Assembly (NCBI GenBank): GCA_964035575.1
Contig: OZ037836.1
Span: forward strand, 558,001-622,000
Length of the DNA stretch: 64,000 nt
Direction of reading: 5' to 3'
DNA from: Rhynchopus sp. YZ270_cl-10
Taxonomy: Eukaryota
The position numbers and the translations under genes are program-made. Under the pieces are notes generated by a model. The model had not been told where the DNA came from, did not search any database, and saw only the letters and a list, made by a program, of their open reading frames with translations. This document shows positions 6,145 to 48,700 of this stretch, piece by piece (positions within the stretch are counted from its first letter, which is position 1; each line of letters opens with the position of its first letter).

Positions 6145-6873
6145 GGTTTTGTGTCTCTCTGTTTGAGGTGTTTTGGGTGGGGCAGGAAGAAACAACAAAG
6201 TCGATGCGTTCCACGAAAGAGTTGCAGCTGGTGCAACGTCGATGAAGCATGTAATTATATATTGTCATATCACCAAAAACCTTAGTAACATCATCACCGC
6301 TCAAGACTGTCGGTGTTGTGCGAGACACCTGAAACAAACAGAGGAATGCTTGACGTCTGCTACCCCCACAGCACGGTGGGGCTGAAATCTCAGAAAATAT
6401 GTTATTTTTTTACGTCAGGCCTCTCGTGCCAACTCAACAAGAAGAACTGTACAGAAAAAAAAAAAAAGGAAAAGTTTATAAGATGGCCCTAAGCCTCTCG
6501 TGCGTAGTCACCTTGATCACATTCGTTATCGCACAGCATCAGCTGCGCTGGCTTCTACAAGTTTGTTGTCAGGGATGATGTCATTTCCCCAACCGGAGTT
6601 CGCAATTTTGGCACGTACGATGACGTGTTCGAGCATGTGCATAGTGTAGCAAAGATGCGTGCAATTGAATGAGCTTTTTTGCATAGGGTGAGTAGGAGGA
6701 GGGAAGCCACCAGAACGCTCCGCAAGGAGCACAGCAAGGTCTCCATTCTATGAATGTGGCATCATTGTCACACTCTTCCAACGGTTTTGAAAGGTGCCTA
6801 TAGATAGGACTCGGGTTTTAACCATTCAATCATTCTTTCGCCCCTATACCCAGGGTACAAATAAGATACCCCG

Positions 6874-9354: not shown

Positions 9355-9895
9355 AAAAGTATATTCCCGCGCGCTTCGCGCGCGGGAATATACTTTTTCC
9401 GCTCGCTTCGCTCGCGGAACAACCACCCGTAAAAATTTTTCCCCGCTCGCTTCGCTCGCGGAAAAACTACTCGTAAAAATATACTTTTTCCGCTCGCTTC
9501 GCTCGTAGAAAAACTACCCCTAAAAATTTTTCCCGCGCGCTTCGCGCGCGGGAATTTACTTTACCGCTCGCTTCGCTCGCGGAAAAACTACCCCTAATTT
9601 TTTCCCCCGCTCGCTTCGCTCGCGGAACAACTACTCGTAAAAATTTTTCCCCGCACGCTTCGCTCGCGGAAAAACTACTCGAAAAAATTTTTCCCGCGCG
9701 CTTTGCGCGCGGGAATTTACCTTTTCCTCTCTCCGAAAAACTACCCGTAAAAATTCTTTCCCGCGCGCTTCGCGCGCGGGAATATTGTGTAATTGTTTTG
9801 TATTGTGTTCGCGAGCGAACACAATACAAAAACAATTACACAATACCAAGCATTAGTAAAAAATTACATCCGCGAGCGAAGCGAGCGGAAAATTT
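9355..9895. repeat. Array of about 10 degenerate 35-45 bp units, each containing ccgc(t/g)cgcttcgc(t/g)cgcgg
   Basis: Repeated cgctcgcttcgctcgcggaaaaact and palindromic cgcgcgcttcgcgcgcg; one inverted copy at about 9870. Confidence 0.85.
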
Positions 9896-13186: not shown

Positions 13187-15541
13187 TTAGTTGCTGTTGT
13201 CTTTTGTTCTTATCTGCTCAGTGTAACCACCCATAGTACTATACCCTGTGGACTCTCTGTTGGTCACTGCGAGGGGTGGCTTTTTCGCAAGGTTGAATGA
13301 GTAAAACTGTGGCTCCCAGGGGGCTGTGTAGGGGTCCTGCGGCTGGCAATGCCCGCTGGCACCTGCTCCACGGCTAAGAATCGCTTTCAAAGCCGCCACG
13401 ACGCCTTGCAGAACCTTCGGCAGATTCCGCTCAAGCAGCGACGTCAGCACCTCAACGGCTTGATTCTGCTCATCCAACTCAAGATGCACCAGGCTGCGCC
13501 TATACGCATCAACCTCTGTGCTTCCTTGCGTATCTACGTCGTACATCCACTCCTTGTTCACCCCAGCAGGCGTCTGGTACGGAGTGTACGCCCTCCCTCC
13601 CGTCACGGTAGGGAAGAACGGTGCCAATTCCAACAGCTTCCACCTCGATGCAACCCTTTTCGCATCGTTTGTGCACAGTGTATTGCATCCCAGGCCAGAG
13701 CAGAGGCTCAGCTGATACGCATCGTTCACAGCCGATCCGTACACCGTAAAGGTTTTTGTGACAGAGGTGCCCGCTATACCATAGTGTACTGGACCGGTTG
13801 CGAAGCCGGTTGCAATTACATTGGGGTTGGTCAACGCTATGACACGATTTTCAATTTCTGCTGCAAAAGCTACAATATAGGCGGAATGCTCTTTACAGGC
13901 ATAGGTCGTGTTGAAGGACACCGTTATGCTGTCAGCATTCATCGTGAACACACAGCGTAGGGTTTGCGAGCACTGCTCGACCACTTCTATCATGAGCGTA
14001 TAAGCTTCGGACATCTTCATATCTGTAATAGCGCCTGGGTTCAACCGCGAGACAAGAACAGAAGCGTTTCGAGCAGATACTCCGACCTCGATTCTGGTGG
14101 GCACCTGGTATTTTCTGCTCACAGCGTTCAGGGAGAGATTGTGTGATGGTTGGGGTTGGTCATGAGGCCGATCGGTGTCGCTTTCAGCAAAAACAGTCGT
14201 AGGAATGAAGGATTTGAATTCATAAAGGCTTTTCTCCATAATGCGAAAGGAAATCTCGAGCTGCGCGATTTCACGTAAAAAAGATGGTTTTGGTTGTTTT
14301 TCGTCTTTGTCGATATCCATTTCGGCGCATTTTTCTAACCTACCTACAAATCGTACTAAAGGCTGTGTCAACCAAAACGACAGAAGAAAGGCGGATACAA
14401 TAGAAATAATGACAACCGTAACAGACGCGGTGATGCTTGCTTCAAACCCTCTTTCGACCTCTCCGAATACGAAATCTCTCGGCATCGCGATGCACGCTGT
14501 GAAATGCAACCCATATTCATCTCGAATTGCAAATTTTGCGAACATAAATTCTGTTCCTTCCACCGAGAATTCGTCATCATCAGACAGAGACTCTGTAGAA
14601 CTGCATGAAGCTCGGACTACAGAATCGAGAGATTGACTGCATCGTAGGTCAGGGCGGGCCGCTACGAAGGCTTCTTTTGGTGCACCTACCCCGCCATGCG
14701 TTGCTCCTACCAAAAAAGAGTTTTCGTCAAGCAAAAAAATTCTGGTTTGTTCCATTAGTTCACCGTTTTTTTCGGTTTCGGGACGCACCTTATGTAACAA
14801 TGAATTTAACTGTAGCAGATCTACACCTTTATAGTCTAATCCAATAAATTCTCCGTTTTCCCCTCGAATCCATGTTGCAAAAATTCTGACGAGAGGTGCA
14901 GGCACTGCGACTCCCCAGGTGATGGCACCCCACATGGCTTCTTTTCCTGGAGGTGGGTCGAATGTCGGGAGGTAGTTGTTGTTCCGCCAAAGACGGATCA
15001 TGTTGATCGGAAGCGCGAAGACGCGATTTGAGGCAGGTTCTAACGCGAGCGAGGTGTTTGTGATGATCCATTGTTCCGAGAGGCAGCCTTCGCAGTTTTG
15101 GAAGAAGATTTTATATTCGCCGTTGGGAGAGCGGAATACCAGATGCCAGACGCCTTCGTTCTGTGCGGTGAAGGTGCCAGCATTGGTAATCTGCTTAAAA
15201 GAGTTGATCGACTGCAAATTAAACCATGCAGTCTCATTCAGGGTGCTGAAATTCATGGGCGCGCCGCCACTCTCTTTAGCATTTTGCCTTGCAAGACCTG
15301 CCCCGATAGCTGAAAGTTCGACAACATCTTTTAGCGCTCCAAGGACACTGTCATGTACCTGGACCTGGACCTGCCGCATTACCATAGAGCCTAATTGGTC
15401 AGCGGAAGTGACGCTGCAGCGCCACAGAACGCCCCCAGTCGTCATGCTTGCGGCGATCACAAAAAAGACGGAAATGAAAATCGCCAAAAATCGGACCGAA
15501 AACAACCACCGAAACGCCGCTGTGCAGACCATGGGGACCAT
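13187..15541 (-). CDS. Receptor-type adenylate/guanylate cyclase-like protein (TM, extracellular sensor, TM, HAMP, degenerate class III cyclase)
   Basis: 784-aa ORF with two hydrophobic segments. HAMP-like LTQPLVRF...REIAQLEISF. Cyclase-like GFATGPVHYGIAGT...TVYGSAVNDAYQL. Confidence 0.8.
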   Translation of the reverse strand: MVPMVCTAAFRWLFSVRFLAIFISVFFVIAASMTTGGVLWRCSVTSADQLGSMVMRQVQVQVHDSVLGALKDVVELSAIGAGLARQNAKESGGAPMNFSTLNETAWFNLQSINSFKQITNAGTFTAQNEGVWHLVFRSPNGEYKIFFQNCEGCLSEQWIITNTSLALEPASNRVFALPINMIRLWRNNNYLPTFDPPPGKEAMWGAITWGVAVPAPLVRIFATWIRGENGEFIGLDYKGVDLLQLNSLLHKVRPETEKNGELMEQTRIFLLDENSFLVGATHGGVGAPKEAFVAARPDLRCSQSLDSVVRASCSSTESLSDDDEFSVEGTEFMFAKFAIRDEYGLHFTACIAMPRDFVFGEVERGFEASITASVTVVIISIVSAFLLSFWLTQPLVRFVGRLEKCAEMDIDKDEKQPKPSFLREIAQLEISFRIMEKSLYEFKSFIPTTVFAESDTDRPHDQPQPSHNLSLNAVSRKYQVPTRIEVGVSARNASVLVSRLNPGAITDMKMSEAYTLMIEVVEQCSQTLRCVFTMNADSITVSFNTTYACKEHSAYIVAFAAEIENRVIALTNPNVIATGFATGPVHYGIAGTSVTKTFTVYGSAVNDAYQLSLCSGLGCNTLCTNDAKRVASRWKLLELAPFFPTVTGGRAYTPYQTPAGVNKEWMYDVDTQGSTEVDAYRRSLVHLELDEQNQAVEVLTSLLERNLPKVLQGVVAALKAILSRGAGASGHCQPQDPYTAPWEPQFYSFNLAKKPPLAVTNRESTGYSTMGGYTEQIRTKDNSN

Positions 15542-19165: not shown

Positions 19166-20506
19166 TCATTGTGCGGTTCTCTGCCGTTTGTGTGCTTGCT
19201 GGGGGGACTCGTCTCTGCTGCGTTTCGGACGTGCTTCAACCACAAGCTTGCTCAGATCGGACTCCACCACTGCGTCGGACACAGCACTGCTGCAGCCGGT
19301 AAGGTAGATACTCTTCAACGAAGTGCAGTTGTCCACAAATCCCGAACCAACAACCTTAACCCTGCTGAGTGGCGAGAGATCCAGAGTGGTTAAACCTGAG
19401 CAGCCGACGAGAAAGCATTCATCAATTTCTGTCAAGTTGCTGAGTGGTGAAAGCTCCAGAGTGGTTAAGCCTTTGCAGCCGGAGAGCAACTTGTAGGGAA
19501 TCATTGTCAAATTGCTGAGTGGTGAGAGGTCCAGAGTAGTCAAGCATTCGCATCCGCTGAGAAAGCTTTCACCCATTTCTGTCAAGTTGCTGACTGGTGA
19601 GACATCCAGGGTGGTTAAACCTTTGCAGCCGGCAAGAAATTTTGAACCCATTGCTGTCAGGTTGCTGAGTGGCGAGAGATCGAGAGTGGTTAGACCTGAG
19701 AAGATGAGAAAATGTTCGCCAATGTCCGTCACGTAGCTGAGTGGCGACAAATCTAGGGTGGTTAAACCTGAACAGTAGCCGAGAAAGTTGTCACCGATTT
19801 CTGTCAAATGGCTGAGTGGCGAGAGATCCAGAGTGGTTAAACCTGAGCAGCCGAAGACAAATTCGCTACCGATTGCTGTCAAATTGCAGAGTGGTGAAAG
19901 ATGTAGAGTGGCTAAGCCTGAGCAGCTGCAGAGAAAGTAGGCGCCAAGTTCCGTCAAGTTGCTGAGTGGCGACAAATCTAGGGTGGTTAAACCTGAACAG
20001 CCGTCGAGAAAGCTGCGACCAATGACCCTCACATTGCTCAACCCAGAGAGGTTGATGCTTGTCAACGACGTGCACTCGAACAGAAAGTCGTCTCCAATGT
20101 GTGTCACAATGGACACAGCACTGAGATCAAGTATCGTTACGGTGGCATCTGACAAGAAGTCATCAGGAATGGCAGTCGCAACCTCCGCCTGCAGAAGCAA
20201 ACACGCCACCTCAGGATCATCCGCCTCCTTCAACCGCTCTGCCGTGATGTCCGTCTCACCCAACGCATGAAGTGCTGCTATGGCTTCGTACTTCTGTGTT
20301 TTTGTGAGGATGATCGTGTCACCAGCACTCAGCTGCGTCATGTCGTATCCTTCTCCCATCGCTTCGCCATCGAAACTCATGCAAAAGCCGTCTTCAGGCA
20401 ACCCCACTGCAGACGCAACCTTCCGACGCATCACTGCAGCTGTGTCATCCTCACCCAGCTCCACCGTATCCTTCACTCCGTTCCACCCCTCGATAGTCAA
20501 ATCCAT
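19166..20506 (-). CDS. Ubiquitin-like + 25-aa LRR protein with a basic, NLS-like C-terminus
   Basis: Start MDLTIEG at 20506; the N-terminal domain is homologous to the other two UBL-LRR genes. Repeats FLxGCSGLTTLDLSPLSNLTxIG; ends RPKRSRDESPQQAHKRQRTAQ. Confidence 0.85.
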   Translation of the reverse strand: MDLTIEGWNGVKDTVELGEDDTAAVMRRKVASAVGLPEDGFCMSFDGEAMGEGYDMTQLSAGDTIILTKTQKYEAIAALHALGETDITAERLKEADDPEVACLLLQAEVATAIPDDFLSDATVTILDLSAVSIVTHIGDDFLFECTSLTSINLSGLSNVRVIGRSFLDGCSGLTTLDLSPLSNLTELGAYFLCSCSGLATLHLSPLCNLTAIGSEFVFGCSGLTTLDLSPLSHLTEIGDNFLGYCSGLTTLDLSPLSYVTDIGEHFLIFSGLTTLDLSPLSNLTAMGSKFLAGCKGLTTLDVSPVSNLTEMGESFLSGCECLTTLDLSPLSNLTMIPYKLLSGCKGLTTLELSPLSNLTEIDECFLVGCSGLTTLDLSPLSRVKVVGSGFVDNCTSLKSIYLTGCSSAVSDAVVESDLSKLVVEARPKRSRDESPQQAHKRQRTAQ

Positions 20507-23087
20507 TTTGTTTGCTTTTGTGTTTTCCCGCGGTTTTTCCCTTTGTTGTTGCACTACAGTAATGTTGATGTGGAGAAGGTGTGGGGAAAGAAACAACACA
20601 GCACATCTGCTCTCTTTTTCTACGGTGATCCAACATCAGAGGGGTAAAGCCCTCCTTACTGCCTTAGGGTTCAAAGGCACAAAAACGCTTCGAATGAAGA
20701 ACAAGAAATCATCAAATCTTAAAAAGTGCTGATCACGCTAGCGACACGTCCATAACACTCTCCAGGGAGGGGGGTGACTAAGGCACGCACGACTTGTGTG
20801 TAAGGAAAATGATATGGGGTGTTGTGTGGGGATTCTTTTGTGGCGTAAAACGATTAAATAAGATAAAAACGATTGAATAAGTTGAGAGGTAGGTGCGCTT
20901 CTTTGTTAAGATAGCGACTAAAAGAGAGGGGGAAACAAGCGGGGAGGGGGATACGCAGGACACGCGACTTTTCACGAGGGTCTCGAGCATGTTGTCAAAT
21001 ACTATGTGGTCACTGAAAGATAAAATACGTTTGTAGCAATACTAAAGTGAAGCTGCCTGGTCCAGATTCCAAATGACCTCATGCCACACGAATAAATTCT
21101 GCGCATATTTGCTAAGCTCGACGCTCAAAGTGAGTTGGTCTCTCCACAAGGTGAAAAAGCTATGAGTTATTACGGTCTTCTTCCAATTCTTGCAGCTTAG
21201 CCATGACCCGACTGACTCGCTGATGTTGTTCCCGCTGGGATTCGGCAATGCGGCTGGCAGCAAGCACAACCTGCACCCCTTCACCAAACGCAGTGTCCTG
21301 CAGACCGGCACGTCCCTCCAGCGCCTGCGTGCCGATGCGCATCTCGACAGACGCAAGCAAGACAGCAAACGCCGTTGCACGCAACCTCCTTTGCCGCCGC
21401 AACGTTCGCCTCGCACGGCACCTCCACTGTCGCAGTCACGCCTGACTCTTCCAGTACAAAGGTCGCATCATATTGTTAAGAGGTCTGTTGTGTTTGATGT
21501 GATGGTTGGTGGCGTCACTTCACAATGACAAATAATAACAGTATCCCCAAAAAAAACAAAAGACTAAACGCTTCGAATGAAGAACAAGAAAGCATCAAAT
21601 CTTAAAAAGTGCTGATCACGCTAACGACACGTCCGTAACACTCTCCAGGGAGGGGGCTGACTAAGGCACGCACGACGTGCGTGTAAGGAAAATGATATGG
21701 GGTTTTGTGTGGGATTTTTTTGGCGTAAAACGACCTATTCTGTTTTGTGTGGAGGGAAAGCAAGCACAACACGCAGCAGCAGTTTTCTTTAGGTTCTGCC
21801 CAACACCTTTCTTGACAAAACATAGAGCTGTTATGTGTAGATGCTTGGGAACAGTCGCGCCCCAGGATATAAGTCGCCATTGCTTCTGGAGGATGCAATG
21901 CTGAAGGAAGGATTGTAATTAGATTCTGTGACGCGTAAACCCGCAAACCGCGTAGCAGATTCGGTAAACCCGGAAACCCGTAAACCCTAACTTATTATTT
22001 CATATACAAAATGTACCATGTTTTATAAACGAAAAGTAGGCAAAGAGGGGGCGAAAAATGTACCCTTGCTTTTTTTTGAATGTTTTGCAAAACGTAGAAA
22101 AAGAAACGTAAATGCTTCATGCACAAATTGAAACTTCAGTAACCCTAAATTATTCCGAGACGTAGATTCGGTTGAGCGCAGCCCCGTGGAAGCAGCTCAA
22201 GAAGACGAGAGGTGGAGGTGATGGTGCAGGCAGAAGGGGGTTTTTGATAAATAAATATTTTTTTGTATACAACAGACGAAGCGGAACGCGTACGGTTGTA
22301 AGGAAATAATACAAGCCGAAATGTTTGGGTGTCTTCGGCTCGAATGATTGAAATTGTGTGTGTAGTTCAGACATAAATACTGGCTCTTCTATCTTGTTCT
22401 TTTACTCATTGTTTTCCTTTCATTGCGGGGATGCGTCCAATGAAAATCACTTCGTATAGAAGAGCTCAAGAATGTAGGTTTTATTATTTTTTGAATAGAT
22501 AAAAGCAATAAATTACTTTTTATTTAAAACAGGCAGAATGGGGGCGAAACTGGAGAAGGACCACACACGAGGCGGACCTCGACGTGGTGCGGAAGCCGAC
22601 CATGAAGGAGTCGAAGGGATTCGTCGCAGTGTGCGGATGGCGGCGAAGACACTGCTGCCACCTGGGGAGACGACGTTGCAGGCTGCATGCATTGTGCATT
22701 GCGGAGGGTTCGAAGGGGTGCAGTGGAAAGGGAAGTACACTTCTCGCTGCCGAAGGCGGAGCGGGAGGATCTGGGTGGAGGTGAATGTGCGGTGGTGTTC
22801 GGGGGTTGCGGACAGTAGTTTGGTGTCGTTACTGCAGTATTTTTTGCAGGATTGTGGCGCGTTTCCTTTTGAAACAAAAGGATATTTGAGGACATCTGTG
22901 AATTTTGAAGTAGTCAAAGCAAAAAGTAAAAATTATCTTTTTTTTTTTTTTTTTTGTTATTTTTTTGTTTTTGAAAACTTCGAGAAAAAAAAAATCACGT
23001 GTAACAACTAAATAGCAACCTCCACGCCAACCCTCCTCGAAAAAGAAAAGAACAAGCGGCCCATCCCTTTTTTTTTGCAAAAGGTAG

Positions 23088-29436: not shown

Positions 29437-31009
29437 TGTCAGGGTTTCCGCCAGGATTTTGGGTTTCAGGAATTGGGGGGGACCATCAAAAAGACCCCCC
29501 CAAAAAATTTTTTCTCCCCGCAAAAGCGGTCGTCGCGCGCTTCGCGCGCGCCTCCCTGCAGGCCACAGAGTGGAGAGGCGAAGGGTGCACCAGGTTAGAT
29601 AGCAGCCATGTCAAGCTTTACAGCTGTGTTGTCTGGTAGAGGTGGTTCGTTTGGAGGTCGGGGGTGGAAGTTAACAAGGTAAGGGGTCTTGTGAGAGTGG
29701 AGGGTGATGGTGTTTGCTTTTTCTATTGTATGGCGCTACAGTCATTACAGTGCTGCAGTGGGAACATGTAATAACTACCCGTCGCTTGCACCGAAGCCTC
29801 CTTAGAAAAAGGGGCAATGCACGGAAGTATCGATGGAAGTATATCAATATCACATAGCTAGCAACACAGCGCCGCAGGCGCACGGTACGCTACTTTTACC
29901 TTTTTAAAAAAGATTGCACCACCCCCTTTTTTCTTCCACTTCTTCTGGCACAGCGAGCCAAATGCTCTGCACGGTGGGGTCGCATGACCACGGGGGGTCA
30001 TCTACAACCTCCAAAACCCCATTTTTCTTGGGGGGGACCATGGTCCCCCAGTGTTCCTAATTTTGCGTTTAAAACGTTTAAAACGTTTTAAACGTTTTAA
30101 ATTATTTAAAACGCGTTTTAAACGTTTTAAACGTTTAAAACTCGAATAAAAAACGGGTGACAGTTCTGCACAAAAAAACGTAAAAAAAGTGGGGGGAATT
30201 TTTCGAATTTTTTTTTTCTGTATCAAAAATCATAGTTTTGGTGCATCTGGGGTCAATTTAGCCTGGTTTTTCTTGGTTTCTCCTGCTAACTTGTTTCCTG
30301 TACGGTACCCTAATGAGTGCGCTAAAACCTGGCTGATCAAGCGCTTGGTGCCAGCATTTGATGTGTCAAAAATTCCCAGCGGGTTCCAGATGGGTAACAG
30401 GGTACTTAAGGCTGAGTATGACAGGGTCATGGTTCCTGTGAGAGCAGCCCTAGCAAAGAGCCTGCACATCTCGGTATACGTTGATGGCTGGAAGGCGCAC
30501 AACGACGAGAAGGTGTTCACCCTTGTCGCGAGGGTGCGGATGCCCGCCCTGTAAGCACAAAAGTTTTGGAGGAGGACTTGCACAATGCGGAGGAGATCTG
30601 CACGCACCTGCATGAGAAAAAGATAAGTTGAGTGGGCTAGTGTGTGATGGGGACACCATGGGACACCACTGTGTCTTCTCTGTCCACAACAGCAGCGGCG
30701 GACGACCTGGAGAAGTTCATGCGGGTGGAGGACTCCCCTGGTAGAGCTGCTGCGATATCGACTAAGCTACCTGCAGGCGACAGCTGGCTTGCCGGAGCGA
30801 TAGAGACTGTGGAGGAGACGGGAGCCTATCGCCACAGCGTACGCGCACCCTTACTGGACCACGACCCCGTGTCACCGTGGGAGTGGGATCGTACGCTGAA
30901 TGACGTGCTGATCACCAGAAATACCGGGTGTCAGCAAGAGTGACTCTGCAAGCAGCGAAGAGAACCGGCAAAGGACGGAACTGGCTCTTGCGGCTCTGCC
31001 ACCCCACAC

Positions 31010-31215
31010 GGGACGCGTCTACACAGACAGATCCTTGCACACGGTAAACAGAACACTACGCGCTTCACTGACTACCAGATCAGCGCACCCCCAAGGAGGA
31101 GTGGGGGCCATCTTCTACCACAACGACGGCTCCACTACACCAAAGGGGGCACACCAAGCATCCAGTGGCGCAGGCACACTCTGCTCGGCCTATCAGGCAG
31201 AGCTGGTGGCACCTT
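31010..31215 (+). pseudogene. RNase H fragment, probably from a non-LTR retrotransposon
   Basis: RVYTDRS (compare YTDGS), then with a frameshift GGVGAIFY...SGAGTLCSAYQAELVA (RNase HI AEL motif). Confidence 0.6.
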
Positions 31216-31396
31216 GTAATTAGACACCATGCGGTGTCTAATTACACCGTGCCTGCTGCCACTGAAAAGTTCAGCAAAGAGGAAAATACCACATTTTTTC
31301 GCAAAGACATTTTTTTTTGCCTGTAAAAAAAAAAAAAAAAAATTTTTTTTTTTTGCCTGAAAAGCCAAAATTCACCACCGTTTTTTATTCGAGTTT

Positions 31397-32666
31397 AATA
31401 ACTATTTATTCACCTCCTTTTAGCGGGGTTTTATTTTGCGATAACTTCACGCATTTTTTTCCCAGGCGAGGGCTACTTAATTTGCCGAGCGAAGCGAGGC
31501 AAATTGAGTGCACGAGCCTGGGAAAAAAATAAGTGAAGTATCGCAAAATAATCCGCTAAAAGGAGGTGAATACGTAATTTTATTTCACGGGAAATAAAGT
31601 ATACGAAAGGATTTGGCACTTTTAGCGGGACTCATTTATTGTGCAATAACTAACGAGTATGTGTCCCTCCAGGTAGCTCTCATTACCCCCCCGCTAGCTT
31701 TTGCTCGCTGGGAACCTGCAAAAAACTGGTGAACTGGGCCCATACCCTGGTATGTGGGGTGGGATACGCATTTTCGGGGTGGCAGAACCATGTGTGAGCC
31801 ACAGGGTGGTGCACGTGTGACCCCATGCAGTACCACGCAACCCACGTTTTTACACACACAACAACGGCATTTTGCGCGTAGCGCGTACAGTATGTAGCCT
31901 AAAAAGCCCACACCACGTGTACGCATAGCGCGTAGCGTAGCGTGTGGTCGGGTTTGGAAAGCTGCCTCAACGGTACACAAAGCTACATCCCGACCTCTCG
32001 CCACCTCAGTGTCCCCTCGGGTGCGGGAGGTCGGGAAATGGCTGTCGTGCAAGAGCGAGACACATTCAGAAGATCCCCGCCCATCACAGAATATCATGCC
32101 AGCCACCACCTTCCTCACAATGAAGTAAAGGGGGTGGTGTGTCCTTCGTCTTGATAGTGAGATCGTCACGGAGATACACTATGTACGAAACGAAGTCGGC
32201 TTCTGTGGGCTTACCGTCAGTCTTGCCAATGAATTCCTTAAAAAGCGGTCCCATTCACGGACGTACGGTGTCGACAATGCTAGTCCTTACTGTAGTGCTT
32301 GTCCATCTCCTGTCGGAGGACCGTTTGCGTCTTACATCCTTCGGCATGTTGCATGTGTCAGAAAAAATGGGAAAAGGGCAAAAAAAAATTCGAAATTTTC
32401 AATTTTTAGGCGGGTGGTAGTGCAGGATGTACCAAAATTTAGCGTGAAGTTATCGCCAAATAAAACCCCTGTTTTAGCGTGAAAAAAACAAAAATAAAAT
32501 CCCGCTCTGAAGGAATTGCAGTGAAAAAAAGTGAAAAACGCGTGAAATAAAGTTCAATGAGCGGGTTTTTAATTTGCGATAAAAAAAGTGCGTGAAATTA
32601 TCATTAAAAAGAATCCCGCTAAAAGTGCCAAATCCTTCGTATACTTTATTTCCCAGGGGAATAAAA
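31397..32666 (-). mobile_element. Decayed Crypton-like tyrosine-recombinase element
   Basis: Hairpin at about 31400-31579 with a GAA loop at 31491-31493; inverted pair 31578-31630 / 32614-32666. It interrupts the hAT subterminal sequence gagtttaa|aacgttt. Confidence 0.8.
32040..32347 (-). pseudogene. Frameshifted, internally deleted tyrosine recombinase N-terminus
   Basis: Minus-strand frames give YVREWDRF, KPTEADFVSYIVYLRDD and LYFIVRKVVAGMIFCDGRGSSE. These align by eye to YKTEWNKF, QPREEHVVSYLTHLREE and YWCVRKAYVAVCFLSGMRCTE of the 42214..43230 protein. Confidence 0.75.
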
Positions 32667-33517
32667 CGTTTAAAACAGTTTAAAACGTTTAGAATTTAAA
32701 ACGTTTAAAACGTTTAGTTTAAAACTAGCGTTAGGAACACTGTGGTCCCCCCCAAACCCCTGTAAAAATCCGGATTTTTCTGGGAAAAATATTGGGGGGG
32801 TCCATGGTCCCCCCCGGTCCCCCTTGGCGGAAACCCTGAGTGTGTTGTGTTCTTGTTGGGTAGGGGTCTTAATCCCATATTAAAAATGTGAGAAAATGAC
32901 GCACGCCACTTTCTCTCATAGATAGGACTCCCCAGCCTAGGCATACCCAGAAGGCGAATTCGTATTCTGAAATATGGTCCAGGAATTTTGGGATACAAAT
33001 TCAGGGAAAATACAGATTCGTCTTCGAGGTAATGTCTAGGCTAGGGTAGGGGGAGAAAATACAGTTCACACTACAGAAAAAAATGCGGCTGGCATTTTAT
33101 GCTTTAAAAAAAAAAGCAAGAGTACAGCTGCCTGTTGTGCTGATGGGAGGGAATGTGTAATGCAGGGGAAAAAATGAAAAAAAAAAACAAAATCCAAAAA
33201 AAAAGATCGGGTCTTTTGTTTGTGCGGTCAAAGCCGGAAAACAAAAAGGTAAAAAAATTGTGTTAAACTGAAGTACGGTTGTTGTGGTTAATTGAGTACT
33301 CAAAAAGAAACAAGCGAGCTTCTGTCTTTTTCAATCCGTTTTGTTTGCCCTGCAGCGCTGCCTCCAATCTTTTTAGAATTGACAACAAGTTGTTTTATCA
33401 AAAAGAAACCCCCGAGAGTAGCAATAGGTAGAGATGAGTTCCACTTTTTTTCTTTCTTTTTAAAAAAAAACTTGGTTGTTTTAGTGTAGACACCCGAGGA
33501 TGAACTCCACTATACTA

Positions 33518-34242
33518 AAGGGGGAGTGGACCTATTATTAGGGTGGACCTATTATGCTATAATAATAGGTCCACCGTTTTTGGGTTTAAATTTAACTTTT
33601 TAAATCTCGATTTTCGGAGAAATTTTTTTTTAAAAATTGGCTGGGGAATATGGTGGGTGTAGGGGAAGGGTGGCACAGGGTACACGACGGGACTCAGTGA
33701 CAAGTGAAAATGACAAGTGAAAGACAAGTGAAAAAGGTGGCAAGTGGTGGCAAGTAAATCACTTGTCATGAACTACTTACTTGTCATGACAAGTGATTTA
33801 CTTGTCATTCACTTGTCATGTCACACCTTTTTCACTTGTCTTTCACTTGTCATTTTCACTTGTCACTGGGTCCCGTAACGAAGGTTTACTACTTTTTCAG
33901 CGGACACGTTTTGGTGCAGTGGTTTGCAGTTGGCCTGCTGATTTGCAGGCAATACACGGCACGGTCGGCAAGCTTGTGTGTCCGCTTTGCAGGAGGTTTT
34001 GAGGGGGGTGGGCGGAGCAGTGACACCTTCCTCTCAGATGTCGCATCAGGTGGCGCAGCAGATGGCGCAGCTGCATCACCAGGAGAAGGAACTGGTGTTG
34101 AGGGTGCTTTTGATGGCACCTGGTCTTCTCTCTTGATGTGCACACTGCCCATCCTGAACAGACGTAACTGACCTTTGTATGTCGGCTCTTCCTAGCCTAG
34201 ACAAGCAGAATTGTCTAAGGGTTGGATTGTTCACCCACTAAC

Positions 34243-34713: not shown

Positions 34714-37089
34714 TCAGACCTTCCCTTTTTCTCCAAACTCCATCTCATGATTTGACGCAGTACTGCGACCGGACGACATCGCGAATCCGATATTCGAGAG
34801 CGAAACGAACGATGTGGCTGCAGCTGGCTTGTCTGATATACACCAGGAGTGGTACTGCGGGTGCCCTGTGGGCCGTATGGGGACTCCACTGGCAATGAGG
34901 TCCAGCCGCGCCAGCACGACATTCGCAAGCGAAATGGCAACGTCTTGCGCTTCGCGCGACTCCGCAAACTTCCTCATCAACTGCGTGCCGCCCGCTTCGT
35001 CTCCTCTCTCCAAACAGCCCAACGCTTCTGCATAGTCGCTGTAGACGTCCTCCTTGGGGCCTGCCTCGACTTCGTACATCCAACCTGATTTGTTATCTAT
35101 GGGCATCCTAAACGGGGTGTACGCCCGCCCTCCGGTCACCGTCGGAAAGAACGGCGCTAATTCCAATAAAGTCCACGTTGCAGAATGATGATAGGTGCAC
35201 AGTGTATTGCATCCCAGGCCAGAGCAAAGACTAAGCTGATACGCATCGTTCACAGCCGATCCGTACACTGCAAAGGTTTTTGTATGCGAGGTGCCAGCGA
35301 TGCCGTATTGTACCGGGCCGGTTGCAAAGCCGACGGAGAGATCGATGGTGCGTTCGCTCTGTGCCAGGGTTTGCAGCTCGTTTGCAAATATTATGACATG
35401 AGCCGCATGGTGCTTCGCAGGGATCGTTGTGTTGAATGAAACCAGAATGCAGTCCGCGTTTATGGTAAAAACGCATTTTATGGTGTTGCTGACCGTTTCG
35501 ATGCTGGAGGTCATGCGGGTGTGCGCTTCGGACAATTCCTTCGGTGTTAACCCTACGCGGCTTTCTCTCGCAACCAATACCGATGCAGATCGATTTAGCA
35601 TATCCACCCTACTGCGAACCTCAATGGGAGCAGGAGCTGATAAAGGGTGGGACATCGGGTTAGGTGCGGGATGTGTTACGATGCGGGCTTCTTCCATTTT
35701 GTCGTCGTCGACGGAAACGTCTTCAGGATGGTCGATAAACAGGGTATTCGGTATAAAAGTTTTGAACTCGTAGAGGCTTTTCTCCATCATACGAAAGGAA
35801 ACCTCGAGTTGTGCGATTTCTCGAAGAACTGATGGTTTAGTATAGTCTCTGTCTCTCTTGTGTACATCCATTTCTGCGCATTTTTCTAACCTACCTACAA
35901 ATCGTACTAAAGGCTGTGTCAACCAAAACGACAAAAAAATCGTGCAAAAAATCGACACCGCGATTACCGTAACAGACGCGGTGATGCTTGCTTCAAACCC
36001 TCTTTCAACCTCTCCAAAGACGAAATCTCTCGGCATCGCAATGCACGCTGTAAAATGCAATCCATATTCATCGTTGATAAAAAATTTTTCGAACATAAAT
36101 TCTGTTCCCTCCACTGAGAAAGAATTGGACATTGAGGCGCTTTCTAGAGATGGGCAGGACGCACGCACGACCGCATCCTCTGAGTCTTTACACAGCAAAT
36201 TTGGATCGCCACTTGCATAATCTTGCACCGGCGCGCCCACCCCACCATGCGTTGCTCCAACCACAAAACCGTTTTCATCCTGAAGGTAAATTCGTGTATG
36301 GCTCAAGGTGTCACCCCCCATAATGTCCCCTTCGGGTCGAACCTTATGCAATAACGTATTTAATTGAAGCAAATCGACACCCTTATAATCCATTCCCAAA
36401 AACTCTCCATTTTCCCCTCGAATCCATGTTACAAAGACGCGAACGAGAGGTGCAGGCACTGCGACTCCCCAGGTGATGCCACCCCACATCGCCTCTTTTC
36501 CTGGAGCTGGGTCGAATGTCGGGAGGTACTTTTTCTCCCGCCATTCGCCGATGACGTTAAGAGGGAGTGTGAAGAGGTGCTGTTCCGGGAGTAACGCGAG
36601 CGAGGTTTCTGAGATGAGCCATTGCTGGGAGAGGCAGGTGGTGCAGTTTTGGAAGAAGGATTTTTGCTCGCCGTTTGGGGTTCTGAAGACAATGTACCAA
36701 ATGCTTCCAGCATCCGGCAAGAAGGTACCGGCATTGGTAATCTGCGTAAATGAGTTGATCGTTTTCAGATTAAACCATGCAGTCTTATTCAGTGTTATAA
36801 AGTCGTTTAATGTCCCATCCGCCTGCATTGCATGCTGCCTTGCAAGCCCGGCACCAATCTTCGATACCTCCACCACATTATGCAACGACGTCAACACAGC
36901 ATCCTGGACCTGAACCTGCACCTGCCGCATCACCATAGCGCCCAATTGGTCTGCTGAAGTGACGCTATAGGACCATAGCACCCCTCCGGTAGTTACACTC
37001 GCCGCAATCACAAAAAAAACTGCAATAAAAATGGTCAAAAACCTCACAGAAAGAAGCCATGTCCAGCAAGCGGGGGAGGGGAGGGGCAT
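34714..37089 (-). CDS. Receptor-type cyclase-like protein, paralogue of 13187..15541
   Basis: ORF 34714..37128; likely start MPLPSP at 37089. Same TM, sensor, TM, HAMP, degenerate cyclase layout. Confidence 0.8.
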   Translation of the reverse strand: MPLPSPACWTWLLSVRFLTIFIAVFFVIAASVTTGGVLWSYSVTSADQLGAMVMRQVQVQVQDAVLTSLHNVVEVSKIGAGLARQHAMQADGTLNDFITLNKTAWFNLKTINSFTQITNAGTFLPDAGSIWYIVFRTPNGEQKSFFQNCTTCLSQQWLISETSLALLPEQHLFTLPLNVIGEWREKKYLPTFDPAPGKEAMWGGITWGVAVPAPLVRVFVTWIRGENGEFLGMDYKGVDLLQLNTLLHKVRPEGDIMGGDTLSHTRIYLQDENGFVVGATHGGVGAPVQDYASGDPNLLCKDSEDAVVRASCPSLESASMSNSFSVEGTEFMFEKFFINDEYGLHFTACIAMPRDFVFGEVERGFEASITASVTVIAVSIFCTIFLSFWLTQPLVRFVGRLEKCAEMDVHKRDRDYTKPSVLREIAQLEVSFRMMEKSLYEFKTFIPNTLFIDHPEDVSVDDDKMEEARIVTHPAPNPMSHPLSAPAPIEVRSRVDMLNRSASVLVARESRVGLTPKELSEAHTRMTSSIETVSNTIKCVFTINADCILVSFNTTIPAKHHAAHVIIFANELQTLAQSERTIDLSVGFATGPVQYGIAGTSHTKTFAVYGSAVNDAYQLSLCSGLGCNTLCTYHHSATWTLLELAPFFPTVTGGRAYTPFRMPIDNKSGWMYEVEAGPKEDVYSDYAEALGCLERGDEAGGTQLMRKFAESREAQDVAISLANVVLARLDLIASGVPIRPTGHPQYHSWCISDKPAAATSFVSLSNIGFAMSSGRSTASNHEMEFGEKGKV

Positions 37090-37382
37090 TGGAAAAAAAA
37101 AGAGAGAGCAAAATGGGGAGTTATTCAAAAAGGGGAGGAGGGGGGGAAAGGGGGAAGGAAAGAAGAAAAAAGAAAAAAGAAAAGTCTGTGGGGTTGTGTG
37201 TGGGGGCTGGGGGGGGGGTGTTTTGATAACTAGTAGGTAGGGAAATTATTGCACAGAATATGGCGCAAGAGTTTAGAGAGTGGGTGTGCGCGTTGATAAC
37301 CTAAAGGAGTGATGCTTGCACAGAAATATGGACCCAAAAAGGGGGAGGATTTTTTTTTTTTTTGAGTGAATAAAGTGGGGGG

Positions 37383-40948: not shown

Positions 40949-41759
40949 TGTGGTGGGTGTTTTGCCTAAGGGGGGTGTGGGTGTGGGTGTGGGTGTGGGT
41001 GCACAACGGGACCCAGTGACAAGCGACAAGTGAAAATGACAAGTGAAATGGGTGACAAGTAAATGACAAGTGAATGACAAGTGGATCACTTGTCATGACA
41101 AAAAAGTCATTTGTCATGACAAGTGACTTTTTTGTCATTTTACTTGTCATAAATATGGGTAGATGCCAAAAACCCCCCCTCCCCCTAATTTCACTACGAT
41201 TTTTTGAGGTTGTACCAGGTTTTACCAGAAATAAGCGCCGAAAACTGCCCAGAACCACCCCAAAACCATTTTCCGGCGGGTTTTGGGGGCTATTGGGGAA
41301 AAATACACTTTTTTGGGGGTATTTTTTTGTGTTTTTAGGCTATTTTTTACTCCCCATGCCTTACAACCCCAGAACAGATAGACACATAAAGAATGCCCAG
41401 GGTTGGACTCAACACTTACCTTGAAGGTATAGATAAATGCGTCCGTGGGGACTGGTCATGTCGGGGGATCGGAAAAGACGCCCTTCACCGCATGGCTAAG
41501 AGAAAGCGGGATTTTGTTACTTCAGTTTGTTCAGTTTCACAAAGAACGTGTACGAACTGTGGCAATACAGGCCACAATACACATACATGTCCAAAAAAGC
41601 GTCGCATATCATAAAAAAGACCCCAAAACACCCCCCAGACCCCAAAACGTCCCCCAGACCCCCCAAACCCCCCTTGTACATGTGCCTGGGCCTCTCATAG
41701 CCTCCCAACCAGACTTTCCGCGCTGAAGAATCCGATGAAGAATTCTTCGAAAAAAAAAA

Positions 41760-43418
41760 ATAACTAATTATTAGCGTGAAATAAAGTGCACTTTTTTTCA
41801 CGCCCACGTAATTTTGGCTCACGAGTGAGAGTTTATTGCCCGAGCCGCAGGCGAGGGCAATAATAGAGCACGAGTGAGACAAAATACGTGGAAGTGAAAA
41901 AACGCACTTTATTTCAAACTAATACGTAGTTTTGTTTTACAAGTGAAAATGATATTTTTGCTGGGATCCTTCACAAACGAGACGTAAAATAGAGTGATTT
42001 TATGAACAAAATGTGGGTACCTGTAAGTGAGAGTGTGAATGAGAGTAGGGGAACATGTGAACATCAATCAAAAGCAGGGAAGGGGTTACTTTTTTTGATA
42101 TATGCCTCCTATGACTGGTACTAATTACAAGATGTCACCACTCATCTCGCCTGTAGGGGGGGGGCAGGTGTATAGAGCATCACAGAAGGGGGGTTTTTTT
42201 TTTGCACTCATGATCATGGTTTGTTCTGTTGCACATTGATGTTAATCTTGACTTCTTGTGGCGTCTGAGTTGGGGGACTGTTGTTCTGTGTCAACAGCTG
42301 TGACATCGCAACTTGACCGGCCTGTGTGACTTCGGTGTACCTTTGTGGCATTGCCTGACTGACCCACCCATAGTGGCGTTGCATCTGTACAATAGATGCT
42401 CCTGCCTCAGCGGCTTGAGTCGCAGAAGACCTGCGGAAGCTGTGCCCAGTGTACGAACCGTCCAGCGCAAGCACCCTCGCGACTTCTGCAGGTATGCCGT
42501 ACATTTTGTTGATGCCAAGAGGTTGCACACGAAAGGTCCCAGTAGTAGTTCTGTCAGCTGTCGTCTTAGTTCCAGTGATGAAGAAGCGACCCTCCTGTGA
42601 AACTGGTGAGCGCCGGTTCAGGTACTCCTCCACCACACAAAAGTAGATGCTGTCTCTTGGTACCACAAACCTCCCACGCTCCATGTCGGCCTTTTTCACC
42701 TTAGCACAGTGCTGGTACGTGAAGAGGTATCCCACTGGTGATTCCTGATAATTTGTCATCTCAAGCATCAGTGCTTCTGTGCATCTCATTCCCGACAGAA
42801 AACACACCGCGACGTAAGCCTTGCGGACACACCAGTAGCAGTCGCTCAACTCGCTCATCTTGAGAAACATCTCCACTTCTCCCTTCGAAAACGTCTTGCT
42901 CTTCTTCGTCGATTCGTCACTTCCCCAGGTCTTCAGCAACAGCCCGATGCGGTGGTACTCCTTTAGTGAAAAGTCGAACTCCGTCTTGAACATAAAGTTG
43001 AGCTTAGAGTAGCACGACCATAATGAGCTGGCTTTGTAGCTGCGTTCTTCGCGCAGGTGTGTCAAGTAAGAGACCACATGTTCTTCTCTTGGCTGCTTCC
43101 GCCCCGTGATTTTATTGTGTTGTAAAAACTTATTCCACTCCGTTTTGTATGCAGTGCTTGACTTCAACCCTGCCAGAAGCTCGGTCTCATACAGATCCTC
43201 CATAGCCTCCTTCTTCTTGGTCCTTGGCATGATTTGTAGGGTGGAGTGTGTGGTTTTGTGACTGACAGAAAACAGTGAAACTTTTTTTCACGCCAGTGAA
43301 ACTTTTTTTCACGCCTCCAGCGAAATTACTAAGAGCAAGCGTGAAAAAAAGCTCACTTTATTTCACGCCCCGTTTGTGAAGGATCCCAGCAAAAAGTCAT
43401 TTTCACATGTGATATAAA
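41760..43418 (-). mobile_element. Apparently intact Crypton-like tyrosine-recombinase transposon
   Basis: Hairpin 41762-41931 with a GCA loop at 41847-41849; inverted pair about 41931-41997 / 43353-43418; single recombinase ORF; no reverse transcriptase. Confidence 0.85.
42214..43230 (-). CDS. Tyrosine recombinase (phage-integrase family, Crypton-like)
   Basis: 338 aa. N-terminal core-binding region, then SGMRCTE (Arg I), AKVKK (probable Lys), YTGHSFRRSSAT (HxxR), RHYGW and PQRY (Tyr). The catalytic set appears complete. Confidence 0.92.
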   Translation of the reverse strand: MPRTKKKEAMEDLYETELLAGLKSSTAYKTEWNKFLQHNKITGRKQPREEHVVSYLTHLREERSYKASSLWSCYSKLNFMFKTEFDFSLKEYHRIGLLLKTWGSDESTKKSKTFSKGEVEMFLKMSELSDCYWCVRKAYVAVCFLSGMRCTEALMLEMTNYQESPVGYLFTYQHCAKVKKADMERGRFVVPRDSIYFCVVEEYLNRRSPVSQEGRFFITGTKTTADRTTTGTFRVQPLGINKMYGIPAEVARVLALDGSYTGHSFRRSSATQAAEAGASIVQMQRHYGWVSQAMPQRYTEVTQAGQVAMSQLLTQNNSPPTQTPQEVKININVQQNKP

Positions 43419-45770
43419 TCCCAAAAAAAAAATTTTTTCCAGTGAAGAATTCTTCATTGGAAAAAAATAACAATAAAAAAAAATTCCCGAAAAAAAAAAA
43501 TTCCCCCACATAAGCCTCTGAGAGTGACCAGAACTGGCCTCATGAACAAAGTGACCCCGTCACAGCCAGAACGCGACTCAATTGATCAAACGCCGAACGA
43601 AAAGGAAACATGCAGCATCAGGGCCTTCAACGTGTCGAAGTTAAGCCTTAACTTCGACAACTTTTTTTTTTTTGGTTTTTTTTTTTGTCGAAGTTCGACA
43701 AATCTAAAAAAAAATATGGGATTTTGGCAAAATCCTTTTATTTCTGACCGAGTTGCAGGGTAGTCCACGGGAGAAACTCGGTTCAGGGTTTTAACTTTAA
43801 CATTCTCCTGTGATCCACTGTGACCATTTGGACAGAGCTCGTAGAAACCAACGAGGAGTGAGCCAGACAAAAGTAGCGTACCGTGCGCCTGCGGCGCAAG
43901 CAGGCATCCCACCCTTCCCATGACATAGTTTGGCTGTAAATAAAGCGCCATGGTATGCGCAATATTTGAAATGTTGCGTACAGTGGCTTCGCCAGGGACC
44001 TTTGTTGTTATAAATGTACTGAGCTTACTGATACGACAGGTGTGATACCCACTACGGCTTGTGGATCACCAGTGGCTACAAAGCTACCAATGCTGCTTGT
44101 GTTGAAACACACGTGTGTGGGACAGGCGGATTTTTTTGGCTGACCGAGTTTTCAAAAATGACCAAAACCTGTATAAACCCCTGAGAGCTTCTCCCTGTGT
44201 TTTGCTACACCCGCGCGCGCGAAGCGCGCGCGGGCTCGGGGAGGTCAGTTTTTTTTTTTTTTTTTTACTTCGACAAAACTGTGGACAGACTTTGTCGATG
44301 GTTGAAGGCCCTGTGCAGCATGGCGAAAGAAAAAAAGTAGCGTACCGTGCGCCTGCGGCGCAAGTTTGCAACCCACCTTCCCATGACATAGTTTGGCTGT
44401 AAAAATGTGCAATTTTAAGCGCAATTTTTTGAAATGTTGCGTACCGTGGCTTCGCCAGGAACCTTGATGCTATGACCACCGTTTCTTTTTGTACACATAC
44501 TGAGGTTACTGATAATTCGTGTGTCTGGTGCAAATATCAATGAAGTTGAACTCCTCAGTTGGATACCCGAGGAATTCTCTCATTCCGGGTCGGGCTCGAC
44601 CGCGCTTTTTTATTTTATTTTTTGGAAATCTCAGGGACTGCGCTGGGACGCGTTTTTTGGGCCAGAACTCTAGTGTCTCCGCCGGAGGCCCCGAACTTGC
44701 GTTAACTTCCGGCGCGCGTAGCGCGCCGGGCTCGGGACGTATTTACCTTTTATGTACAAAATCACGATTCTTCATCAAAAATCGTACCCAATGAAGGAGC
44801 GCGGAAACACTGCTCCCAACAGAACTAAAAAAAAATCAAGTGAAATTAGGGGGAGGGGGGGGTTTTGGCACCGACCCATATGACAAGTGATTCACTTGTC
44901 ACTTGTCATTGGGTCCCGTCGTGTGGGTGGTTAAAATTCAGGGCGGTGGATACTAAAATCCGATCTCACCTGGTAGGTGTTTTTCCAGAGCTGAAATTTC
45001 TTTTCTGGAACCAGGCTTGGAAGGAGGAGAACATCCCAGTTATGTTACGCACGCGAAAATAATAAAACCTACATCCTCGAACTTTTTATACACAAACTAT
45101 TTCATTGAACGCATCGCTTTGGGGTATTAAATACAACAAAATCCTCACGGGAGGAACTGCACTGACAGATGGAAATCTGGGTGCAGATGGAAAAAAGAGA
45201 GAAGTCGAAAGTGCAAACGCCTCACCGTTCATCGGCGGATGCAGGCACCTCCACCAAAGAAAGCTTTGTAACACGACCTTATTCGCGCCCTTACTTAGTT
45301 TAAATTTGGCTAGGTTTTTACAGGAATTGATTGACGCTTCTGCAGTTAGTGTACATCTGTGTATAATTACACAAAAAAAAAAAAAAGAGAAAAGAGTAAA
45401 ACATCACCTCTGGGCACCGTCGGATGCAGTGTCCTGCTTGTGAAGAAAGAAAATACTACGGGTGTCAATAACTATCTTCACACAGAAAAACGGGGAAACG
45501 AAATAGGGGGAGAGTTTTGCTAGTTGTACGCTGCCACCACTCAGTGTCCCTCTCATGAAGAGAGAATAAATAGCTCTTGAAGCTCAGGCTTCACCCTTGC
45601 ATTTGCCTTGGCTTTTCGCAAAACCAACATATTTCCCCGCAACTGATTTCCAACATACACGAGGAGCTCGAGGACACTGCCAGCACATCACATGAATAGA
45701 GGGGTGTGTGTGTGTTTGATAACTAATAGGGGTAATTCTTGCGCAGAATATGGCCCCATATGTGCGTGCG

Positions 45771-48700
45771 TCAGTGCATTTTTATGGCGACAGGTTCGAA
45801 GTACTTCTTCTCCCACGCGTGGCGAAAGCGTTCGTACACAGGCCCATCACCCTGTGCAAGGATTTGGTCTGCTTCGTCGGTGGAGTCCTTCTCCTGTGGT
45901 AGGCATAGGTCGTAGGTGGTAAATCTTAACATCATAACGTACACTCTCTGTTGATTCTAAAACGGGGGTGGGAAAAATCGCGGAAGGTAAATTGGGGAAG
46001 AGGTTCAAAAGTTGGAACGCTTCCTCACCCCATATCACACAAAAAAAGAACACCCCCAGATCACACACTAAATAGTGGAGCACACGGGTGGCTACACTAA
46101 TACAACCAAATTTTCAAATAAAACAAATACACACCTCAAACTGGCCGCTGATGATGAGAGCAGCCCAGTTGTTCCACTTCATGTGCGGGTCCCTCTTCTC
46201 TGCCTCCTCTAGCTGGTACATCCATTCGCCAGCGTGGGCTGGGTCCAGCGCGGACACAAGCTCGTACAGGGAGAGCTTACGGGGAAGCTTGCGGAAGGTC
46301 GCCCCCTCGACAAGGCGGAATAGAAAACACGCCACCACCTCGGACCGTACTGTCTGGTCCGTAAGCACACCAAACTCACGCTCCCTGCAGTACCTCTCCA
46401 GCGCATATGCCCACGAGATTGTAGGTGACAGGAACGAAAACCTGCGCATCACAGACGTGCCCATGTTCCCGACACGTCCCTCCCCAGTCACAACTGACGC
46501 CGTGGTGTCCAGGTTAAACTGCTGTGCAGCACGTCTGCAAAGATGTGCCGCACCGCACGCATAGACTCGGTGACTCACAACATAAGTCGCAGCGTTGAAC
46601 GAACACGCGAACCTGTCACCCATAAACGGCTCCGTCACACCTTTCTGCTTCGAGAACACAGCAACGAAGGCCTCCAGCAGGATTGAGTGCAGCTCCAACA
46701 CCTCTGTATCGGGCTTGTCCTCGCAGTGTCTGTGGAAGTCCTTGATGTTCACGACTGTATAGGAGAAGCGTTTGTGGTTGAGGACACAGACGAAGGGGTT
46801 CACAGCAGTGCGGTCCGCACGCCAGGCAGACTCGTTGAGGCGTGTGCTGGTGGTGGAGCTTGTACGCTGGAAGGAGTTCGTGAAGGAGTGGCCCAACTCA
46901 GCAGCATGTAGAGTAGCGTCAGGGTCACTGCTGCAGTCACGTATCAGCTGCACAGACTGCGGCATGTAGCTCTTGTACAGCTTCAGGTTCACAAGCATGT
47001 GCCCAATAGCACGGTTCATCATGCGCAGCTCACTGATGACCGACGTCTCGTCAGGAACGGTGCTGATCTTCAGCACCGCTGCCTTGGCCATAAGCACCGC
47101 AGTGTCCTCAAACGGACGTGTCAGCACGTTGTTGAAGAGCATGAACACCACAACAGACGCCATCACCAGCGCCACCATCACAAGGATCGTTCTGTTCGCC
47201 TTCTGCCGCAGTGCCTTGTTCGTGTTCTTCTCAAGAACGTCCAGATCCTGCAGTGTCCGCATGTTCGTCGCGTCAATCTTCCGCAGAATGTCCTCACGTG
47301 GGATCATCGTCGCAACGGTAAAGGGCTCCATCTCTCGTGTGTCGGAGTTTGTGTCAAACGTCCGTGTCTGCACAAGGAAGGACTTGCTCACGGGGTTGCG
47401 TCTCACTTCGTCAGAAGCATGCAGGAAGTGTGGCGTGTCTGGGAAGTACCTCCGCACAAAGGTCAGGCTGTCGATGCGACCCTTGAAGAACTGTCCCACG
47501 TAGTACGGGTTCGAATGCTTGCGTGTCCTACTTCCCAACACTCCCCTACCACGTGAGTCAGTACCGTGAGCATGAAGTGTGCCGTTCACGTACAAGCTGC
47601 AACGTCCACCACCCATCACAGCTGTCACCGTTGTCCACGCACCCACAGGGAAGCCACGTCTCCCAAAGGCATCCACGTAAGGTGCTGTGCTGCACCCGTA
47701 CTGCAGAACAAACAGATAGATCTGCCCGTTCCCAAACAGACGGAAGTTCGTCTCCCCCACAAGCGAGTCTGTGAACAGACGAGGTGTGGTTGCACTTGGT
47801 GATGCTTCGTCGTACAGCACATCAGGCCTGATGCGCATGCTCACCATGAACTCCGTGTAGCGTGTGAAGTCTGGGAGCAGCATGCACTTCAGCGCGGCTG
47901 TGCTGCTTATGCGCGAGGCAACACAACGACGTCCGTCTGCATGCACAAGCTCCGCATCGAACCCGTCGTACTTGCTCTTCCACGGCTCCCCTGCTGCACT
48001 CGCACGTGACCGCTCCACAACTGGTGCCTGCCGTGTCAGGTTCCTGTACACGTACTGCACTGTCGACCCGTCAAACTCAAGCACGTCCTTCCCACGCTGT
48101 GTGTCGTGCACAACACAGTTCCCACACCCACCGTCACGCACCTCCGTTTCCCAGTGGTGCATGCTCGTGTCCACAGCAGCACCGTTCTCCACACTGAACA
48201 TTGCGAGTGTTGTGTGCGGCGACTCTATCCAGTAATCAGCCTGGTCAAACTCCCCGTAGTGCTGCACCCATCTGTCCTCTGCTGGCGTTGCTGCTGCACC
48301 CGCGTCCAGGTAGTGGCCCACTGCGTTCACATCGACGGCGGGCACGTCGCAGAAGTGGTGCAGCGCATACACGTCGTGAAGGTATGGACTGAACATGACT
48401 GCCACATACTCCTGCGACTCTGTGCCTGTGTTGTATCCCCCCAGAATCACTTTGTCGTGTCTGTCCACCACAAGCACAGTCATGTTCGCCAGGCTTGAGC
48501 CCTGAAGACGTGCCGTGTCCAAGGCTCTGTCCACAAAGTACTGGAGGCGCTCCTGCACAGCAATCGTCCCGTGGTACGGCATTGTGCTGCCCTCCATGTT
48601 CGACCCGGTCAGTGCCATGTAGGCAACGATGGGAACCTGATCGTACCACGTCCGTGAGTAGAACTGCACGCGTCCGGTGCGCCAGATGATTTTCTTCTTT

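Follow-up and report, generated by a model that had tools for sequence, protein, structure and literature searches.

Is a hairpin-bearing stretch inside a hAT-like repeat part of its host, or is it a transposon in its own right, and what would its ends then say about how it moves? The stretch, E2, lies in a window of 64,000 nt, by which we mean the whole of the DNA analysed, together with an intact element, E1. The original prediction described E2 as a second, divergent recombinase element with an A-A'-B...B' layout: a hairpin formed by arms A and A', followed by a segment B whose inverted copy, B', lies at the right end. The window otherwise carries three paralogous genes combining ubiquitin-like and BspA-type LRR parts (361-1548, 4990-6198, 19166-20599) and two pairs of genes resembling receptors, their C-termini degenerate and cyclase-like (13187-15541, 34714-37128, 46114-50877, 55608-60587), with PA and laminin-G domains in the long pair.

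We fixed the ends of E2 by comparing window positions 31345-32730 with public contigs. An empty site, joining 31395 to 32662 and skipping 1266 nt, was found in three of four runs (X1, X4 and X5), and the reciprocal head-to-tail joint, 32661 to 31396, in two of four (X1 and X7). Both joints share three ambiguous letters, the TAA overlap. TAA flanks E2 as a direct repeat (31396-31398 and 32662-32664) and is single in the empty site, so it is a recombination overlap and not a target site duplication (TSD) of the DDE type; the prediction of no conventional TSD was right about the latter and overlooked the former. E2 thus spans 31399-32664 (1266 bp). The left TAA, on the plus strand, lies on the host side of the crossover as a target half-site in which AA is preferred. 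The terminal ATAA had been predicted as ataaa, of which the last A belongs to the host. The empty site may derive from another host copy and is no proof of excision. The head-to-tail contig of X1 has a depth of 7.2, against 219 for a unique flank contig, which fits rare circles; in X7 the depth of 9.3 resembles that of the run's own element contigs and fits a tandem. The junction could equally be a circle, a genomic tandem or a chimera, between which contigs cannot distinguish. X1 may be the run from which the window itself derives. X1 also contains a second head-to-tail form of the E2 family (32665 to 31397) with one extra letter, another register and a depth of 187, probably two adjacent insertions at one locus. 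Parts of the E2 stretch occur in 12 runs among the matches listed, none of them RNA, and in many variant contigs.

The host is itself delimited. A 2.7-kb element at 30049-32742 has both the short terminal inverted repeats (TIRs, 12 bp) and the 8-bp TSD (30041-30048 and 32743-32750) of a hAT, and E2 sits in its right arm. Its own empty site, joining 30040 to 32743, is present in three of four runs, and blastn recovers an uninterrupted arm at 30028-30156, the left arm of the element being 30049-30156. The predicted hAT repeat is borne out by these features; a hAT transposase is not, as frames are degenerate and Pfam gave only a weak HTH match in the one interior frame scanned. The suggested comparison with uninterrupted host copies yielded an exact empty site with the TAA overlap, and E2 is separate from the hAT arm.

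Within these ends the predicted layout holds up well. On the plus strand, arm A occupies 31399-31490 and holds most of the bulged bases, its first seven (31399-31405) forming a core-site spacer found at the left end only; arm A' follows at 31494-31579. The apex (31482-31502) consists of tandem GA.GA mismatches (31487-31488 with 31496-31497), a 2-bp stem and a GAA triloop (31491-31493) closed by C-G. Folding the top strand of 31390-31640 gives -76.5 kcal/mol (z -17.5), a value matched by none of 200 shuffles. B (31580-31637) is an inverted copy of the right terminus B' (32607-32664), which ends in ATAA; blastn aligns 31578-31637 with 32607-32666 at 90% over 61 columns. E2 and E1 both start aa-TAACTA(A/T)TTATT, and AATACGTRRTTTT occurs exactly twice in the window, at 31569 and 41921 (0.27 expected allowing one mismatch; 2 of 100 shuffles reach two). 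This second motif, aatacgta.tttt, had been taken to mark the crossover, which does not hold as worded: strands cross over at the element's two ends, behind ...AA and just ahead of arm A's first T. What the motif covers is the A'|B boundary (after 31579), the minus strand of which (31566-31593) mimics the joined ends with one base fewer, and the motif would face the crossover only if a single strand were folded.

E2 also contains remnants of a tyrosine recombinase (YR) gene, on the same strand as in E1. The clearest runs from 32347 to 32150 on the minus strand, matches residues 1-66 and contains two frameshifts; in a frameshift-aware alignment with the 338-aa E1 protein it scores 71, against at most 35 in 25 shuffles. 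With a 49-sequence profile, 32254-32087 ranks second in the window behind the intact gene (E=0.002; 2311 six-frame pieces). A further piece at 32127-32053, also minus, matches residues 132-156 (box I) weakly (score 39 against at most 33 in 20 shuffles). The frameshifted N-terminus of the original prediction is therefore real and oriented as in E1, and consists of two separate pieces. About 65 codons between them are deleted and the catalytic C-terminal half is gone, so E2 is non-autonomous. The proposed check, plain tblastn of the 338-aa protein, missed E2 when run against the whole window, and the remnant emerged from frameshift-aware alignment and the profile. tblastn with P0008 and P0010 gave no match in the E2 interior, and a weak search among five candidates gave no full-length partner for the remnant. 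We had considered the frameshifts private to this copy and dropped the idea, as other E2 copies carry a 10-nt insertion at 32288.

E1 supplies what E2 has lost. It spans 41761-43417 (1657 bp) with the same layout, its ends placed by analogy, and its hairpin folds with a z of -9.5. Its only gene (42214-43230, minus strand) encodes an intact YR of 338 aa that belongs to Pfam PF00589 and carries the R-H-R-Y catalytic set in conserved form, with R149, K176, H263, R266, W289 and Y298. The protein has a Cre fold (TM 0.72) and is nearer Cre than IntI. The E1 enzyme is intact and recently amplified, the identical protein occurring on 37 contigs. It has 1770 relatives at E<=0.001, and its look-alikes in the Atlas fall mostly in eukaryotic integrase clusters. 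A word-indexed search with the protein returned only the protein itself, and viral contigs contained no YR relative; two motif matches there have neither hairpin nor YR and are chance. Reverse transcriptase (RT), RNase H and gag are absent from the 1657 bp of E1; in 49 family members we found integrase and SAM-like families only, and no GCR1_C, DUF3504, peptidase or RT domain. E1 itself lies inside an array of A-rich repeats, with the word TGAAGAATTCTTC on both sides (41721-41760 and 43418-43504). Inverted-repeat elements built of tgacaagtga units lie at 33687-33876 and at 41008-41205 and 44829-44920, one arm pair enclosing E1.

We retrieved 48 related metagenome loci with a 15-sequence alignment. 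A long hairpin (score >=45) is present in 23 of them and in none of 50 shuffles; the threshold is also reached by 7 of 29 other 2-kb tiles of the window, so hairpins alone are common in its repeat-rich DNA. The 23 loci represent 18 distinct elements once two multicopy groups are merged, and many of the 25 loci with no hairpin are short or partial contigs. The arms covary, with two-sided changes in 15 of 15 tested pairs, a level reached by 0-1 of 500 shuffles and above all slid controls, in a sequence-only alignment of 15 selected hairpins from which the structure was also derived. The layout is common to many related loci with canonical CryptonI motifs and recurs in unrelated contigs. Together, the related loci, the covariation and the internal mimic support the prediction that A-A'-B...B' is a family-wide property well outside the window. 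Three observations stand beside this survey. A copy of the L028 group with no hairpin (L035:2277) begins at precisely the A'|B boundary, where it abuts a flank of unrelated sequence, so cutting at the internal mimic may occasionally occur. Two copies that are 97% identical (L045:140-170 and L046:2035-2065) have about 25 nt of the apex in opposite orientation, either a flip-flop or an assembly effect. GCGAAGC-type mini-hairpin words recur in other repeat arms of the window (9395-9712, 29530-29552, 44205-44235).

What do the ends say about recombination? We examined 11 hand-picked elements with both ends visible: E1, E2 and nine of the 48 loci. Independent evidence for the ends comes from five copies of a distant family, ~99% identical with different flanks, and from two copies that are 97% identical. 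One of the five follows a head-to-tail junction; the junction in L028 is a circle or a tandem. The joined ends are most symmetric around a 7-nt spacer (40 of 66 matches, against 18-28 for spacers of 3-12 nt), which in E2 is 31399-31405, flanked by GAATAA and TTATTC. On the top strand the crossover coincides with the spacer's 5' edge, the position cleaved by Cre-type enzymes. Every right end closes with AA; next to the left end the host supplies AA in most cases and otherwise TA, TT or AT; and the termini share 0-3 nt (TAA in E2; elsewhere AA or nothing). All 11 elements carry the spacer on the left, as do all seven two-ended copies of two multicopy groups, and host bases past the right terminus fail to reproduce it (0-5 of 7). 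By the logic of Tn916, if both strands were exchanged across a spacer that does not match, the spacer should turn up at either end; its confinement to the left, unmatched by the host, disfavours two-strand exchange.

The same elements carry the internal mimic. In all 11, the other strand of the A'|B boundary copies the joined ends, giving the family an internal region complementary to both termini, imperfect by one base. The mimic is 1 nt shorter than the joined ends in 10 of 11, a count that may arise from placement since 7-8 of the 11 have a right end that falls within an A-run and had to be positioned manually; the ends of E2, L029 and L046 are the ones anchored independently. The exception, L016, conforms if its end is shifted by one A.

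The hairpins further distinguish the two strands. With 20 of them (18 loci, E1 and E2) oriented hairpin-first, mismatches on the top strand are more often G.A than C.T (90 versus 31) and more often G.T than A.C (64 versus 39), tandem GA.GA outnumbers TC.TC by 20 to 1, and bulged bases concentrate in A over A' (81 versus 17), all counts that are not independent because the loci share descent. Most loops read c(GNA)g or c(GNNA)g. According to two studies, c(GNA)g and c(GNNA)g loops and CGAG blocks are extra-stable DNA motifs, and the mini-hairpin tested was less stable as RNA (PMC13037366, PMC10085684). The apex motif is absent from 4 of 18 distinct hairpin loci (L014, L017, L018, L044); in the L029 and L046 groups the loop is GCA and tandem GA is missing, and the L045 apex is flipped. 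Nearest-neighbour energies differ little and do not separate the strands, so the argument rests on mismatch identity. In some elements the gene is directed at the hairpin and in others it faces the opposite way, and a tree of 16 rows, from which seven labelled rows were left out as near-copies or short, forces at least three changes. Strand polarity therefore tracks the hairpin rather than transcription, which is evidence against an RNA intermediate.

The features shown here that bear on the mechanism are the ends, the empty site, the head-to-tail junction, the family-wide hairpin with its covariation, the internal mimic and the strand bias of mismatches. On balance we favour, with a modest lean, the reading that E2 is a broken, multicopy, CryptonI-type YR transposon with a 2-3-base overlap, whose family likely moves as one folded strand by one-strand exchange. 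The top strand, with the hairpin at its 5' end, would be freed during replication or as a cruciform arm. A would fold on A' and B' on B, so that the A'B template places the two termini next to each other, and YR supplied in trans would cut the top strand after ...AA at both. The cut strand would be sealed into a single-stranded circle, and the donor copy would stay on the other strand. In the circle, the core would present inverted half-sites around the 7-nt spacer, together with an unpaired base and a mismatch expected to prevent further cleavage. It would then attack a target behind a W-rich dinucleotide, usually AA, with exchange of a single strand, and host replication would resolve the junction, as at integron attC. 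One-strand exchange is better supported than the folded substrate because it could also occur on a double-stranded circle. Extended to CryptonI-type elements across eukaryotes, the reading would make them single-strand copy-out transposons, in which a Cre-fold YR acts on a self-splinted folded strand by one-strand exchange; we put this forward tentatively, a little short of even chances. Equally tentative is its corollary, that such copying-out would parallel, in eukaryotes, the attC recombination of integrons and amount to the DIRS internal complementary region (ICR) in DNA-only form.

Classical Crypton movement, in which a double-stranded circle is excised and integrated, is the best-surviving alternative, and we consider it unlikely, though worth keeping in view. 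The hairpin and B/B' would then be accessory sites or a cruciform aiding synapsis, and the mimic would be kept imperfect and unused. A double-stranded circle is the model in the Crypton literature (PMC3212892, PMC13565253), the joined ends resemble a normal YR core, the protein has the Cre fold, and the low-depth junction fits any circle; bacterial SEs combine strand-biased recombination with double-stranded circles (PMC10214605). Such a circle alone, however, leaves unexplained the covarying arms of 65-90 bp, the strand-specific GA.GA and GNA loops and the one-arm bulges, and the shared overlap is only 0-3 nt, against 4-6 bp in CryptonF/S.

More improbable still is a DIRS-like splint, in which a linear single strand, displaced after a nick or made by RT in trans, is ligated on A'B, filled in and then integrated by YR. 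The A'B geometry matches the DIRS-1 ICR, which is described as complementary to both extremities and essential for retrotransposition (PMC7192593), and DIRS integrates through trinucleotides, as TAA suggests here. Yet E1 has no RT, RNase H or gag, and gene orientation flips against the hairpin. Moreover, the DIRS-1 ICR is an exact complement, whereas the E2-type mimic has a conserved missing base and mismatch at the joint, which would make it poor for ligation. That E2 is hAT arm, a fold-back or an assembly artefact can be dismissed with near-certainty: tblastn found nothing in a region that is AT-rich and repetitive, but the empty site in three of four runs refutes it, and the uninterrupted arm at 30028-30156, the profile and frameshift matches and the layout in unrelated contigs all speak against it. 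E2 is a real element, ordinary as a broken copy and notable for what its ends say about its family.

Our favoured reading has practical consequences. The defined ends give an exact candidate core site, cut position and active strand, which with an intact enzyme can be tested with oligonucleotides. If true, it extends folded single-strand YR recombination to eukaryotic nuclei, links Cryptons to DIRS elements and supplies rules for finding the ends of a transposon group whose ends usually stay undefined. New here are the empty site of E2 and its reciprocal junction, the tie to CryptonI motifs over many loci, a 7-nt core whose spacer occurs only on the left, the asymmetry of mismatches and bulges, and genes that flipped repeatedly.

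How does the family compare with known systems? By protein it would be CryptonI-type. It resembles CryptonI in having a single YR with no C-terminal domain, a length of 1.5-2 kb and non-autonomous derivatives, and the motifs QPxGIN..IP..A..L..YTGHSFRRSSA..G..RHxGW match CryptonI rows in supplement 4 of PMC3212892, a match made by eye. The 2011 paper reports CryptonI in insects only and no terminal repeats, direct or inverted (PMC3212892), whereas our elements come from a eukaryote whose gene content does not look like that of an insect and have a long hairpin, an offset inverted repeat, an internal mimic and a 2-3-nt overlap. The hairpin, B/B' and TAA overlap run against the absence of terminal repeats as a CryptonI character, itself a negative observation of 2011; as many loci with canonical CryptonI motifs carry the layout, it may have been overlooked rather than absent. 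Nor do the ends show the 4-6-bp terminal direct repeats of Cryptons in general, and they depart from the published descriptions in PMC3212892, PMC13465315, PMC8969392, PMC13565253, PMC5753468 and PMC3627910. CryptonF and CryptonS are likewise YR-only DNA transposons with a circle model, but have 5-6-bp terminal direct repeats and extra C-terminal domains, neither found in E1/E2. Among animal non-autonomous Cryptons, some (Eulor5/6, for example) have a long palindrome at their start, and the layout may already be noted for them. We did not find A-A'-B...B' in the freely readable article text that our literature searches covered. A 2026 review states that Crypton transposition lacks experimental demonstration and assumes a double-stranded circle (PMC13565253).

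Helitron2 shares asymmetric terminal inverted repeats and a 5' hairpin with a switchable pairing partner, but has an HUH Rep-helicase, 8-15-bp repeats and no YR (PMC3627910). DIRS1-like elements have an internal region complementary to both termini, a single-stranded intermediate (which we propose here too), a trinucleotide junction and YR integration (PMC7192593); our family differs in its lack of RT, RNase H, gag and long inverted LTRs, its imperfect mimic and its one terminal hairpin. CTXphi attP is a case of a YR acting on a folded single strand. Integron attC x attI recombination offers a working parallel to what we propose, with a YR on a folded strand, unpaired bases that set the strand, one exchange and replicative resolution (PMC8946536). 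Integrons differ in being bacterial and in using IntI, a more distant fold match than Cre, while here the site would be assembled from both ends on an internal template. By analogy, the E1/E2 family would combine attC-like working with the geometry of the DIRS ICR and be a member of neither.
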